Assembly (NCBI GenBank): GCA_964016885.1
Contig: OZ024746.1
Location: forward strand, 58,342,001-58,406,000
Source of the DNA: Eledone cirrhosa
Taxonomy: Eukaryota
Direction: 5' to 3'
DNA length: 64,000 nucleotides
In this document: piece after piece, positions 1 through 62,768 of the stretch
How the letters are laid out: every line of letters begins with the position of its first letter
Numbering within the stretch: position 1 is the stretch's first letter
Notes under the pieces: model-generated
Database searches by the model: none
What the model was told of the DNA's origin: nothing
Seen by the model: the letters and a program-made list of their open reading frames with translations, nothing else
Translations under genes and position numbers: made by a program

Positions 1-107
1 CCTAGGTGGTTCAATGCAGGAGGGTGCAGAACAATAATATAAAAGACGTAAAATAAGAAAATATTTTTTAAAAATTTTAAAAAAATGTTTTACTTACTTA
101 AATTTTC

Positions 108-189
108 ACTCCAACTAATTAGTTTCTGCAATGGGATAAAGACAGTTACGTAATCCTACTGTCGAGAATTCATTGCGTCATTAGGGAGT
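108..189 (-). ncRNA. HHR with long stem II, core mutated (CTAATGA)
   Basis: ACTCC-CTAATGA-c-GCAATG...CATTGC-a-GAAA-CTAATTAG-TT-GGAGT; homologous to 54891-54972. Confidence 0.6.
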
Positions 190-367
190 CTATTCTCAGC
201 TGAGTCTCCATTGAACCACCTAGGTACTATGACATAACCTGTGTATTTGCTGGCATGGACGTGCATCTGTGCGCCTATGTTAGTTGATATATTAAATTAT
301 CTCTCTCTCTCTCTCTATATATATATATATATATATATATATATATATATATACACATATATATTTA

Positions 368-1130
368 TCTCTTTTGAGATGAGTTTGAATTATTTTTCCT
401 ACATCTTACGTTAACTATTTTTCCCATCTTGACGACATAGTCGCATATATGTTATGGAATACTGTTAGCTTCTCTCTAAAACAATTTCTATACCTTTCAT
501 TTATATTTATACTCGGATTTTTTTCCTTGAGTGCTTAAATTATCTGTGACTAATCCCGGTTTTTTTAATAAAAACTGCGATAATATTGCTGTTTGCTGAA
601 CTCCTTTTGTAGAGTGTTTTTCGGAATGTATTTGACTGTTATTTCTTGTAAACAAACATTCATTTTCATCCTGACGTCACTAGCCCTGTTTTTCCTCATG
701 TGCGTTTTTCATAATCATGCATGATGGTGAACTAGCCAGTTTTAGAATTCCCTTTTTGGCTTATAATTCTGTGGAAGCCCTGGTTATCTGTTGAGCTCTG
801 CTGACGATTGAAATCCAACCGTGACGATCTCCACTGAAAGTTTTAATGAAATAGTCTTTAAGACTATACAGAGCATTTGATGTTTTTCCAAATTGAAGGA
901 TAAGTATTTTAAACTTTATTTTATCATGAGTTAAGGGTCTATTGATTTTTCCCTGGATTTCACTAAATTCTGTGGATGAATTTATATCCTGATTCTCTTT
1001 TGAGATGAGTTTGAATTATTTTTCCTACATCTTACGTTAACTATTTTTCCCATCTTGACGACATAGTCGCATATATGTTATGGAATACTGTTAGATCCTC
1101 GCTAAAACAATTTCTATACCTTTCATTTAT
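368..1130. repeat. Element with direct terminal repeats of about 135 bp (368-505, 994-1130) between TA tracts
   Basis: TCTCTTTTGAGATGAG...CCTTTCATTTATAT repeated 626 bp apart. The repeat contains a degenerate HHR-like TTGACGA-CATA..TATG-GAAT motif. Confidence 0.75.
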
Positions 1131-1158
1131 ATATATATATATATATATATATATATAT

Positions 1159-1350
1159 AACGAAGGAAATGTGGTAAGGAACCAGGTGGACCATAACGCA
1201 CCAAAGTACTCAATACTTGAGGTAGTAGAGTGGGTAATAGGAACCAGTAAGACGCCGACAGCTGAGCTCAAGCCGTTTCGACGGCTAATTCTGGACTGAA
1301 TTAGCCGTCGAAACGGCTTGAGCTCAGTTGTCGGGGTCTTACTGGTTCCT
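1159..1350. mobile_element. Short fold-back element (ACGAAGGAAATGTGG family) in (TA)n
   Basis: Arms of about 55 bp (TAGGAACCAG...GCTAATTC and its reverse complement); nearly identical to 38063-38297. Confidence 0.85.
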
Positions 1351-1380
1351 ATATATATATATATATATATATATATATAT

Positions 1381-2340
1381 TAGAATTGGAGCTCTGAAAT
1401 AGCAATATATATATGGATGTATATATAATGTATTTTGCAATACACTTTATGCTTAATTAAAAGCATTTTGAAGACCGTAAGCTATTGTTTTAAAGTAGTG
1501 ACAAATTCACTTACTTTGATCTCAGTAAACAGGGGAGATGAGCCGACAAGTCTTGTTTCGCTTTGGTTGAAGCTTATCAAGGCCAACTACCCCTCCTGTC
1601 CACCGAGATCTCTGATGTTATATTCTTATAAAAATCTAGTAAATAATCAGGAGCTGATTATGCAGAGCGGTTGTTGGTCAGGCAGAAATTAAAATTAGAA
1701 TTGGAGCTCTGAAATAGCAATATATATATATGGATGTATATATAATGTATTTTGCAATACACTTTATGCTTAATTAAAAGCATTTTGAAGACCGTAAGCT
1801 ATTATTTTAAAGTAGTGACAAATTCACTTACTTTGATCTCAGTAAACAGGGGAGCTAAGCCGACAAGTCTTGTTTCGCTTTGGTTGAAGCTTATCAAGGC
1901 CAACTACCCCTCCTGTTCACCGAGATCACTGATGTTATATTCTTATAGAAATCTAGTAAATAATCAAAATGCTTTTAATTAAGCATAAGTGTATTGCAAA
2001 ATACATTATATATACATCCATATATATATTGCTATTTCAGAGCTCCAATTCTAATTTTTAATTTCTGCCTGACCAACAACCGCTCTGCATAATCAGCTCC
2101 TGATTATTTACTAGATTTCTATAAGAATATAACATCAGTGATATCGGTGGACAGGAGGGGTAGTTGGCCTTGATAATCTTCATCCAAAGCGAAACAAGAC
2201 TTGTCGGCTTATCTCCCATGTTTACTGAGATCAAAGTTTAGTGAATTTGTCACTACTTTAAAACAATAGCTTACGGTCTTCAAAATGCTTTTAATTAAGC
2301 ATAACGTGTATTGCAAAATACATTATATATACATCCATAT
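1381..2340. mobile_element. Retrozyme-like element with a unit of about 315-317 bp: about 1.9 units plus about 1.2 inverted units; related to the 311-bp unit
   Basis: Direct repeat 1381/1696 and inversion at about 1966. Shares GCTCTGAAATAGC, CATTTTGAAGACC and GAGCGGTTG..GGTC.GGCAGAAATT with the 311-bp unit. (TA)n on both sides. Confidence 0.88.
1541..1584 (-). ncRNA. HHR, U3-A8 core variant (also 1858-1901 minus, 2166-2209 plus)
   Basis: GGCC-TTGATAA-GCTT-caacca-AAGC-GAAA-CAAGACTTG-TC-GGCT; GUC site. Confidence 0.75.
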
Positions 2341-2628
2341 ATATATATATATATATATATATATATTAATTATGTCTCATATAAAATAATACAACTGGCT
2401 ATCCGCAAAATACATATAGTTAGGACCCCAAACGTAAAATTGGGATTATACTAAGGTATATCCTAATGTTTGTTGAGTGAGATGGAAGCCAGTCAGATTA
2501 TAACTTGAAGCTTTAAGCTTTCTCTGTTAATATATTAAATATATACAGACATATATATGTATATATATATATATATATATATATATATATATATATATAT
2601 ATATATATATATATATATATATATATAT

Positions 2629-60144: not shown

Positions 60145-60292
60145 GGGTCAGGCATGGTCGTTTGGTTAAAGAGATTACTTCGCCTCCACGTGGTTTCAGG
60201 TTCATTATTCGGCATGGAACTTTCTAGTCCAGGGTTCACCAAGCCATTGCAAGTGAGATTTCTATCACGGAAAATGCTGAGGCGCGTCTTAT
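60145..60292 (+). mobile_element. Degenerate tRNA-like SINE of another family
   Basis: A-box-like TGGTCGTTTGG and B-box-like GGTTCATTATTC; ends at a TA tract. Confidence 0.45.
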
Positions 60293-60295
60293 ATT

Positions 60296-60783
60296 TATAT
60301 ATGTATATATATATATATATATATATATATATATATATATATATATATATATATATATATATATATATATATATATATATATTAATATATATATATATAT
60401 ATATATATATATATATATGTATGTATATATATATATATATATATATATATTAATATATATATATATATATATACATATATATATATATGTATGTATATAT
60501 ATATATATATATATATATATATATATATATATGTATGTATATATATATATATATATATATATATATATATATATATGTATGTATATATATATATATATAT
60601 GTATGTATATATATATATATATATATACATGTATGTATATATATATATATATATATATATATATATATATATATATATATATATGTATATATATATATAT
60701 ATATATATATATATATATATATATATATATATATATATATATATATATATATATATATATATATGTATATATATATATAATAT
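60296..60783. repeat. Long (TA)n/(TATG) microsatellite, representative of dozens of TA, TG and GA tracts in the window
   Basis: Directly visible. Confidence 0.97.
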
Positions 60784-60786
60784 ATT

Positions 60787-61233
60787 GGTAAAAAGAGTTC
60801 CATGTATTTTATTATGCGTATTTCAAAAACAAACATCATCATGCAATAACATTTGCGTTTTCGTCAGATAAAATAGGGAGACATGATATGAAGGTTAAAA
60901 CACACTTCTGAATAGTGCAGTCTTAAATCAACATATCTTAAATCAACATATCTTAAATCAAGATATTAAATCAAGATATATTGATTTAAGACTGCACTAT
61001 TCACAAGTGTGTTTTAACCTTCATATCATGTCTCCCTATTTTATCTGACGAAAACGCAAATATTATTGCATGATGATGTTTGTTTTTGAAATGCGCATAA
61101 TAAAATACATGGAACTCTTTTAACCAACTTTTGATCTTATATATTATTTATACTCCAGTCCTACAAACTGTAGAGTGCTACTTATCCGATATCTGCATTT
61201 CTTTATTGTACTACGATAAAACTCACCTCCTAC
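60787..61233. mobile_element. Short fold-back copy of the 51-53.5 kb family with two HHRs (60807-60873 minus, 61039-61105 plus)
   Basis: Homologous arms, CTGACGA core, centre made of 3 x TCTTAAATCAACATA-like repeats, TA flanks. Confidence 0.85.
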
Positions 61234-61308
61234 ATATATATATATATATAAATATATAACAAGAAGTGTAAGTGAACAGGTTAAACTTAACTTCGTTTAT
61301 CCATATTC

Positions 61309-61367
61309 GGTGTTATATATATTTCGGTGAAAGCCATTATATAACAGCTATGACCTCATCAGACAGC
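61309..61367 (-). ncRNA. HHR with an (AU)n stem III
   Basis: GCTGT-CTGATGA-GGT..AGCTGTTA-ta-TAATGGCT..ACC-GAAA-TATATA-TA-ACACC; stem I is imperfect. Confidence 0.65.
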
Positions 61368-62768
61368 TAGAAATTGATCAGAATAAATAGAAAAAAACAT
61401 AATGATGGAACAAAGTTTACCTCCATTATTTCGATCCATCCTTCGATATGCCCAGTCCCGAATTATGGTGTTGTGTTCTCAAAGAATTGCTGGCAAAATT
61501 AAATTTTTTTATATATATATATATATATATATATATATATATATATATATATATATATATATATAGTTGTAGAAATAATAAATGTGAAGACTAAAATCCA
61601 AAGAGGGCTCGAAGGATAAATATATATCAAATATATAAGAACCCTAGTTAAGGGTGAAAACACCAATTATTTGCTTAAACTTTAATCTCTTATTTTAGTT
61701 AATAAATATATATATATATATATCTGAATTAATTTTTCGTATTAATTTTTCGTATTAATGTTTTCTTATCGTACGAGCATTTATGTAGTTTGCATTAAAA
61801 TGTATGTATTGTAGCGGCACCCTTATATATCGTATTAGTATTCATTTTCGGGATCTGAATTAATATTTCGTATTAGGTTTTTGTAGTATGTTGGCCCCCT
61901 ACTTGTTGACCTGTCATCGTAAGACAGATTAGGCCGAGTACTTCTACCTCATAAAATTCTTTCACTACAATCTCGTATTTAGTATCCCGCCCACCTATTA
62001 AACTTTTCTTTAGTCTAGTGAGAGATTTGATGATTGTGGTAGGGGAATAGTAACCAGAAATTGTGTTTTTTTAATATTTTTAACATTCTTATTTTCTATA
62101 TAGATTTACTCCATATAGATCTACTTATTGTTTAGACTCCCCCCCCCCTCCCCCTATTGACCTCTTATCCTTAGGATTCTGCGGTAGTCGTCACTTTCAA
62201 CGCACGACTGGGTTTCCTCCACTCCTTCTCCCTCTTTCTTCTACTGGCAAGTTCACCTACCCGTTCCTTCCCAAAAATGCCATGTTAGAATTATGTGTCT
62301 CAACAAAAAACTTTTGACAAATCCTTGTGACAATCACTTTTACCATATATGGAATATTATCCCCTGAGAAGCTCGGCTATTCATTTACCAGGATAAAAAT
62401 GTTCATTTAGTCCAGAATTAGCCGTCGAAACGGCTTGAGCTCAGCCGACGAGGTCCTACTCGTTCCTATATATATGTAGAGAGAGAGAGAGAGAGAGAGA
62501 GAGCGAGAGAGAGAGAGAGAGAGAGAGAGAGAGAGAGAGAGAGAGAGAGAGAGAGAGAGAGAGAGAGAGAGACGTAGTAGATTTGTTATATAATGGTCCA
62601 CTTCTGTCTTCTGCAGCGCTGCAGCAGATTACAGTTTTCAAATATAATCCTTTTTTCATAAGGTTACGTATAAGTTCTCTTTTCAGTACTACATGCAGGG
62701 AATGTGCTAATATATCTAGAGTTAAATTTACCTGAGTGTTTGTGATAAAAAGAAACTATCATTATTAT

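Follow-up and report, generated by a model that had tools for sequence, protein, structure and literature searches.

Hammerhead ribozymes (HHRs) recur throughout a 64,000-nucleotide stretch of the Eledone cirrhosa genome (GenBank assembly GCA_964016885.1, contig OZ024746.1, positions 58,342,001 to 58,406,000 of the forward strand; the whole stretch is called the window below). They belong to nine repeat families, of which five are ends of coding Penelope-like elements (PLEs; families P, D, E, G and H) and four are non-coding retrozymes (A, B, C and F). The non-coding retrozymes are likely copied into (TA)n tracts by the reverse transcriptase (RT)-endonuclease proteins of PLEs, probably from circular RNA, because their insertions carry the same footprint of two start sites as the coding PLEs. 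A first-pass annotation of this DNA had proposed a driver-passenger system with seven or more non-coding HHR families. The system stands for the four non-coding families, which bear the PLE footprint, whereas three of the families named there (D, E and G) belong to coding Hydra-clade PLEs.

Each family was searched for in the genome; the best 20-30 loci were examined, and the 19-40 best candidates per search were scored (loci are cited by L numbers). Downstream of the predicted cut site each family has a pair of fixed 3' ends, and its 5' ends are scattered. The two ends lie at +130 and +164-167 in A, +130 and +166 in B, +65 and about +179 in C, and +212 and +270 in F. In the coding families they lie at +167 and +227 (P), +43 and +132 (D), +17 and +97 (E), +56 and about +155 (G), and +36 and about +103 (H). 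Where two arms stand head to head, they stop at different ends in 33 of 37 non-coding pairs (A 9/9, B 6/8, C 11/12, F 7/8) and in 39 of 42 coding pairs (P 8/8, D 13/14, E 17/19, H 1/1), with G, counted separately, at 3/3. Independent choice by each arm would give different ends in about half of the pairs.

The ends also mark the target. At each of 30 family E loci the 3' end passes into TA-type sequence, and among 33 B, C and F insertions without inversion, 19 have TA on the 5' side. Since only 7.7% of the bases sampled are within 10 nt of a TA run, this excess on the 5' side identifies TA tracts as targets, and the earlier placing of HHRs in or beside TA is borne out at element ends. Insertion junctions often share 1-8 nt of AT likeness with the template, and an independent sequencing run, possibly from the assembly's own sample, contains loose TA ends at both A sites. 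Mobilisation by a long interspersed nuclear element (LINE) of the RTE or CR1 type, with the TA flanks as LINE-style tails, would draw on the LINE fragments frequent in the examined loci and on the naming of LINEs as candidates for other retrozymes (PMC7229834). It is very improbable here, as TA on the 5' flanks is a target rather than a tail, and the pattern of two fixed internal ends, with one for each arm, is exactly that seen in this genome's coding PLEs.

The four retrozymes consist of head-to-tail units of 311 nt (A), 317 nt (B), 422 nt (F) and 539 nt (C), with a GC content of 0.34-0.38 and one type I HHR with conserved core per unit. The longest ATG frame on the circularised units spans 33-51 amino acids, and as circles the units are predicted to fold at z -4.2 to -7.2 (25 shuffles each). 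A strong predicted hairpin stands immediately 5' of the second start site in both C and F. PLE coding sequence on the same strand was found upstream in 0/30 B, 0/30 C and 1/30 F loci, the last being a neighbouring P element; no coding parent was seen upstream of A on general inspection, A having been left out of the dedicated upstream scan. Across a 147-nt stretch that includes both start sites, A and B are 74% identical, and their ends fall at the same positions, while their ribozymes differ; by this likeness they are one lineage. HHR core positions 3 and 8 covary in this lineage (16 C-G, 16 U-A and zero mismatches in 32 sequences, namely 34 distinct HHR-like sequences beside the A/B module minus 2 spurious ones, with counts that overlap where loci overlap). 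Among 12 chosen HHRs of the lineage, two-sided changes occur in 8 of 11 pairs, and slid controls have none. Such strict covariation implies selection on the ribozyme core for cleavage.

The first-pass annotation had allowed that each family might prove to be only a solo pseudo-long terminal repeat (pLTR) of its own PLE. This applies to D, E and G, and H has gone the same way; for G a second walk upstream was needed to see it, and only the best candidates of each search were scored, so that A, B, C and F might likewise be solo pLTRs of rare coding PLEs beyond reach. For these four the explanation is improbable: the preceding unit sits upstream in exact register, leaving no space for a frame, and the B and C loci lack same-strand coding remnants, as said above. 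A coding ancestor is possible, the units now moving as complete repeats.

In the window the families are arranged as follows, with repeats within it found by BLAST on masked sequence:

1-296, no strand assigned: older head-to-head copy of retrozyme C; HHR at 108-189 (minus), right arm ending in (CT)n(TA)n
1161-1348, no strand assigned: short head-to-head copy of family E, a Hydra PLE 3' end, in which the HHR is reduced to its 3' half
1379-2334, minus: 317-nt tandem retrozyme B with inverted arm, ends +166 and +130 past the cut site; HHRs with U3-A8 core at 1540-1586 (minus), 1857-1903 (minus) and 2164-2210 (plus)
17136-17860, minus: family E, 3' end of a Hydra-clade PLE; HHR at 17227-17321 (minus) with U3-A8 core
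18682-18911, minus: family H, likely 3' end of another Hydra-clade PLE; HHR at 18709-18769 (minus)
31003-31227, plus: pLTR-like fragment with a degenerate HHR at 31062, its likeness to the pLTR of family P being about 75-84%
31502-38052, minus: array of the 311-nt retrozyme A with 21 HHRs (one at 31669-31707, minus), ends +167 and +130; 17.7 units on the minus strand and 3.4 on the plus strand meet head to head near 37000
38065-38294, no strand assigned: short head-to-head copy of family E in the TA tract adjoining the A array
51075-53545, no strand assigned: head-to-head 3' ends of family D, a young Hydra-clade PLE, comprising a 1.1-kb 3' untranslated region (UTR), pLTR and final codons of the open reading frame (ORF); HHRs at 51195-51265 (minus) and 53441-53511 (plus)
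54442-55030, plus: 539-nt retrozyme C with a short inverted arm ending in (CT)n; HHR at 54891-54972 (plus)
55517-59027, plus: 5'-truncated family P PLE with inverted pLTR arm; HHRs at 55737-55781 (minus) and 58822-58866 (plus), ends +227 and +167
55725-58610, plus: open frame of family P, 961 amino acids stop to stop, first ATG at 55914, with RT and C-terminal GIY-YIG endonuclease
59117-59570, plus: 422-nt retrozyme F, slightly over one unit; HHR near 59520 with A9G
60781-61229, no strand assigned: head-to-head 3' ends about 90% like family D; HHRs at 60805-60875 (minus) and 61037-61107 (plus)
61255-61503, minus: family G, 3' end of an old Hydra-clade PLE; HHR at 61311-61365 (minus)
62239-62466, plus: relative of family E; HHR-like motif at 62364-62454 with altered core

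The arrays of family A bear on how such insertions arise. Both arms are multimeric in the window (17.7 + 3.4 units), in L242 (6.4 + 4.3) and in L243 (7.8 + 5.1), and private variants are common to both arms in the window, L242, L243 and L252. A single haplotype on both sides of the inversion is consistent with a single RNA template, circular or uniform. The 34 5' ends of A range over positions 11-306 of the unit, none at the cut site, and arm junctions show 0-4 nt of overlap in 14 of 17 cases and 10-54 nt of filler in 3; at seven A loci the flanks lie beyond the analysed stretch on one or both sides. The growth of arrays by unequal crossover, after insertion of monomers or pLTR fragments, has been put forward for retrozymes (10.64898/2026.07.22.740005), and local amplification also yields uniform arrays. 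This account appears quite unlikely for A, as both arms of the inversions in the window, L242 and L243 are multimeric, of one haplotype and terminate at a fixed site, so that later growth would need two independent expansions per locus.

Under the reading preferred here, a PLE protein, probably a dimer, would nick both strands of a self-complementary TA tract, and each nick would prime reverse transcription at one of two internal RNA sites. The enzyme would pass the cut site several times, as around a circle cut by the HHR and ligated by the host, and the two cDNAs would join 5' to 5' to give head-to-head arms. The short palindromic stems III may serve dimeric self-cleavage of multimeric transcripts. 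For the cut site to be passed repeatedly, the template must be a circle or a multimer left uncleaved. The circle is favoured because the ribozyme core is under apparent selection and because circles are known for other retrozymes (PMC7229834).

Alternatively, the same PLE machinery may use an uncleaved linear multimeric transcript of an existing array, the ribozyme being irrelevant to insertion. This is possible, if rather unlikely. Unprocessed RNA was the main template of the PLE tested in vitro, that of the anole, which needed no ribozyme cleavage (PMC11167929), and linear multimers may therefore be at work here too. Uniform young source arrays would likewise yield single-haplotype insertions, and units differ from one another in five A arrays (L246, L248, L251, L253 and L254). 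On the other side stand the strict covariation of the catalytic core, which implies selection for cleavage, the strong predicted folding of unit-length circles, and the circles shown for coral, mussel and axolotl retrozymes (PMC7229834). Contigs of unit A return after 311 nt in four sequencing runs of unknown kind, which tandem DNA and a circle fit alike; none of the runs listed for unit A is recorded as RNA, the search having covered A among the four units.

Besides the anole result, several points weigh against copying by PLEs from ribozyme-made circles. Both arms use the same end in 7 of 79 pairs; the ends were defined on the same loci in which they were later counted, and the B pattern also matches relatives. 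The loci, as the 20-30 best matches per search, are biased to young copies. No retrozyme resembles the post-cleavage stretches of P, D, E or G, the sole likeness being that of A with B. The tails between the two sites measure 36 nt in A/B, 114 nt in C and 58 nt in F, against 60-98 nt in coding families (P 60), so that A/B and C match no coding family seen and F alone comes near P. Families G and H are linked to coding parents by just 2/30 and 2/25 loci. In addition, only one of nine predicted Xenopus retrozymes cleaved in vitro (10.64898/2026.07.22.740005).

Family C differs at its ends from its interior. Site 2 of internal units never has more than 2 CT repeats (in 16 units counted and 2 further rows), whereas 17 of 23 terminal ends have 4 to about 30 CT repeats ahead of the TA tract, the opposite arm having plain TA. 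Stutter of the enzyme at initiation would explain the (CT)n; later slippage beside the unstable TA tract is an alternative. If the repeats were written at insertion, a telomerase-related enzyme would have been caught adding repeats at a retrotransposon junction. The fuller proposal, that a PLE pair primes both TA strands at two set internal sites of a captured ribozyme circle, travels round it and lays down whole head-to-head arrays in one event, with (CT)n stutter at the second start site of C as well, is held only tentatively and is on balance doubtful. If it were true, the PLE-retrozyme system would both use and make microsatellites in this genome, and tail geometry together with chimeric junctions would offer a way to match passengers to drivers.

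Candidate drivers are well represented among the coding families. The PLE in the window had been called intact, but its frame corresponds to residues 312-1240 of a full-length copy, the first 311 of 1240 residues missing. Full-length copies with frames of about 1240 amino acids between tandem pLTRs occur at L224 and L225, and 61 scored P copies are 95-100% identical and mostly stop-free. The protein has an RT, a CX4CxxC linker and, at its C-terminus, a GIY-YIG domain with two internal cysteines and two histidines, and the element also shows pLTRs, partial tandems, an inverted 5' arm and a tail. Pfam RVT_1 matched the window frame below cut-off; Pfam gave no families on full-length P, on D or on one homologue, and a sequence search of PDB with P gave no matches. 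A homologue carrying RT and GIY-YIG domains was matched at E 1e-58, and the nearest named relative is an Octopus vulgaris protein with 70% identity. The linker and endonuclease motifs fit Neptune or Nematis, the two not being told apart.

Family D loci were retrieved with the stretch upstream of the ribozyme as query, and PLE coding sequence lies upstream in 30/30 of them, the query adjoining the stop codon. L228 contains a pLTR, an open frame of 820 amino acids and a second pLTR in tandem; D copies are 99% identical and their frames are open. The L228 protein has RWT for RWK, DKT, a CxCX5C linker and a C-terminal endonuclease with CxxC and CxH, and the element has an HHR in the pLTR and inserts into (TA)n. 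As judged by motifs against the published description (PMC8557442), D fits the Hydra clade. Broken Hydra-type coding sequence lies 0.7-1.5 kb upstream in 11/30 E loci. None of the first 30 G loci has coding sequence of its own, and the upstream walk found colinear endonuclease remnants in 2/30 (L279 and L261); for H, PLE coding remnants lie upstream in 2/25. The remnants of E, G and H have the same linker as D, and by these motifs D, E, G and H are taken as 3' ends of Hydra-clade PLEs, H only likely so. D and E were first taken as Naiad PLEs, which their C-terminal endonuclease and HHRs rule out; the Naiad traits of an N-terminal endonuclease and no HHR are absent from D, E and P. PLE coding remnants make up about 2.6% of the genome sample described below, and coding PLEs are plentiful and young in this genome.

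As to which PLE drives which passenger, no specific link was found to the ORF at 55914, earlier singled out for a trans-mobilisation assay; as a 5'-truncated copy it is poorly suited to that. The F tail, close to that of P, is only suggestive of a P link. A search for chimeras yielded three junctions between different families. In L296 a 54-60-nt piece of E lies inside the inversion junction of an A array. In L171 and L394 the head-to-head partner of a B array, with no intervening TA, is a frame of Hydra type that is 38% like D; a further insertion breaks this Hydra arm in L171, and its end is unreadable. These two junctions hint at Hydra, slightly favoured, as driver of A and B, rather than at the neighbouring element; they are single cases for which other readings exist. 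A junction of C and P in L060 was rejected as a chimera, shared private variants marking it as a local inverted duplication, and nested, untraced repeats surround the junctions of F in L102 and of C in L050.

A descriptor scan for type I HHRs found 32 motifs in the window, whereas each of 20 dinucleotide shuffles yielded 0. In 0.8 Mb of the genome (80 evenly spaced 10-kb stretches, small chromosomes being over-represented) it gave 85 hits, 28 of them from three family A arrays, against 0, 0 and 1 in three shuffles. HHR density, which the first-pass annotation had proposed to compare with shuffled sequence, is thus not equal to it. Extrapolation from the sample gives 2-3 x 10^5 HHR motifs in the 3.0-Gb genome. 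The window is rich in HHRs but typical in kind; TA runs number 24.7 per 10 kb in it and 22.5 in the 80 sampled stretches. An Rfam scan listed 150 of 196 matches, mostly chance microRNA matches on microsatellites, with no hammerhead among those 150.

Motifs were recovered at every HHR site named earlier, the copies at 108 and 59517 having damaged cores, and two motifs not named earlier were added, the HHR of family H at 18709-18769 (minus) and the pLTR-like motif at 31062. The change at 108-189 is G5A in a family intact elsewhere, and at about 59520-59560 (plus) the window copy of F has A9G where most copies elsewhere read CTGACGA. The G ribozyme at 61311-61365 has a stem I of only 3 bp. The ribozymes of B (1541) and E (17227) have U3-A8 in place of C3-G8, a natural variant in Schistosoma PLEs (PMC4209133). 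Short palindromic stems III, which had been described for nearly all the HHRs, are a property of A, C, D, F and G; the stems are longer in E and B, and that of P is non-palindromic. An additional HHR family with a 4-bp stem II (L102, L133, L214, L358, L359 and L363; 10 copies) has ends in TA or (CA)n, and upstream coding sequence was not detected in the 10 copies. A further U3-A8 family (L301, L316, L329, L362 and L367) has a palindromic stem III and head-to-head copies in TA tracts. Several D-related subfamilies share stem I and differ in stem II (L295, L298, L318, L327, L340, L346, L348, L356, L358, L359, L362 and L365).

Other repeats share the window. Pieces of another family, abundant and inserted in TA, lie at 55168-55473, 61567-61720 and 3215-3397 and carry an HHR-like motif's 3' half; the family has two ends about +45 and about +140 from the search word, and a full core was not found in 38 copies. 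TA-flanked head-to-head repeats at 9151-9769 and 50375-50749, in which an HHR was not detected, are possibly 3' tails of other PLE families. Fragments of LINE-type RT 3' ends adjoin TA or GA tracts at 2629-3111, 38925-39347, 53667-53884 and 50768-50843. Dispersed repeats of about 190 nt, 70-96% alike and of a size like that of short interspersed nuclear elements, occur at 19047-19234, 25951-26148, 30227-30407, 40168-40499, 41358-41614 and 62599-63743. A 99-nt tandem repeat in three copies, 83% alike, occupies 13918-14218. Between 53547 and 62470 at least six different families lie end to end, each in the TA tract left by the preceding one; such serial placement would make self-feeding insertion hotspots.

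To date, the questions of the retrozyme driver and of array origin have rested on co-occurrence and pLTR likeness. In this genome the passengers carry the PLE-specific footprint of two start sites, and the mapped positions can be put as exact predictions to an in vitro assay that already exists. One and the same genome contains young drivers with open frames from two clades, no fewer than three passenger lineages and, by extrapolation, HHR motifs on the order of 10^5. The annotation is also corrected, many seemingly non-coding ribozyme repeats being truncated Hydra ends.

A system of this kind is already known, and its insertion footprint on retrozymes was not found in print. We found no publication on octopod retrozymes or on a tail footprint in retrozymes, although supplements, subscription journals, Dfam and Repbase may hold these families; the main text of an O. 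vulgaris repeat annotation (PMC13282606) does not use the terms hammerhead or ribozyme. Non-LTR (long terminal repeat) retrozymes were defined by Cervera and de la Pena (2020, PMC7229834), who named PLEs as strong candidate drivers, and mobilisation by PLEs in vertebrates was argued from co-occurrence and pLTR likeness by Li, Clavereau and Pollet (2026, 10.64898/2026.07.22.740005). Like non-LTR retrozymes, the four families A, B, C and F repeat head to tail in units of a few hundred nucleotides, with one type I HHR each and a GC content below 45%, and they are dispersed as monomers to multimers alongside PLEs. What sets them apart is that their insertions have two fixed ends, place arms head to head and target (TA)n, features not found in the available portions of those texts. 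The 539 nt of C exceed the 170-400-nt circles of PMC7229834 and fall within the preprint's range of 51-972 nt, and the U3-A8 core of B is a noted difference from animal non-LTR retrozymes. No pLTR homology linking A, B, C or F to a coding family was found, whereas 24 of 57 Xenopus families have it (10.64898/2026.07.22.740005).

PLEs of the Hydra clade have HHRs, insert into (TA)n and count Mollusca among their hosts (Craig et al., 2021, PMC8557442), and D resembles them in protein motifs, GIY-YIG-type C-terminal domain, pLTR HHR and insertion into (TA)n. Unlike the PLEs described there, the Hydra-type 3' UTRs here measure 0.9-1.2 kb or more, and tails measure 67-98 nt against 30-40 nt. Family P resembles Neptune and Nematis (Arkhipova, 2006, as cited in PMC8557442) in its domains, linker, HHR-bearing pLTR, partial tandems and inverted 5' arm; it differs in having DKS for DKG, a long low-complexity insert and a length of about 1240 amino acids. 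The non-autonomous Chlamys elements (MRC1, PMC8557442) are likewise non-coding PLE passengers with multicopy head-to-tail insertions. Unlike the retrozymes here, they have 3' ends similar to those of their drivers, and HHRs are missing from most Chlamys elements.

The closest parallel to the footprint comes from PAc, a Poseidon element of the green anole; its protein cleaves the two strands and extends each of them (Frangieh et al., 2024, PMC11167929). Two internal RNA start sites in PAc give a tail unique to PLEs. The families described here share with it two internal start sites leading to a genomic tail, AT-rich targets and, on the mechanism proposed here, cutting and extension of both strands, and the tail of P lies within the start of the reading frame, as in PAc. 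The footprint was demonstrated there for an autonomous element only, whereas here it is read from genome sequence on non-coding passengers.

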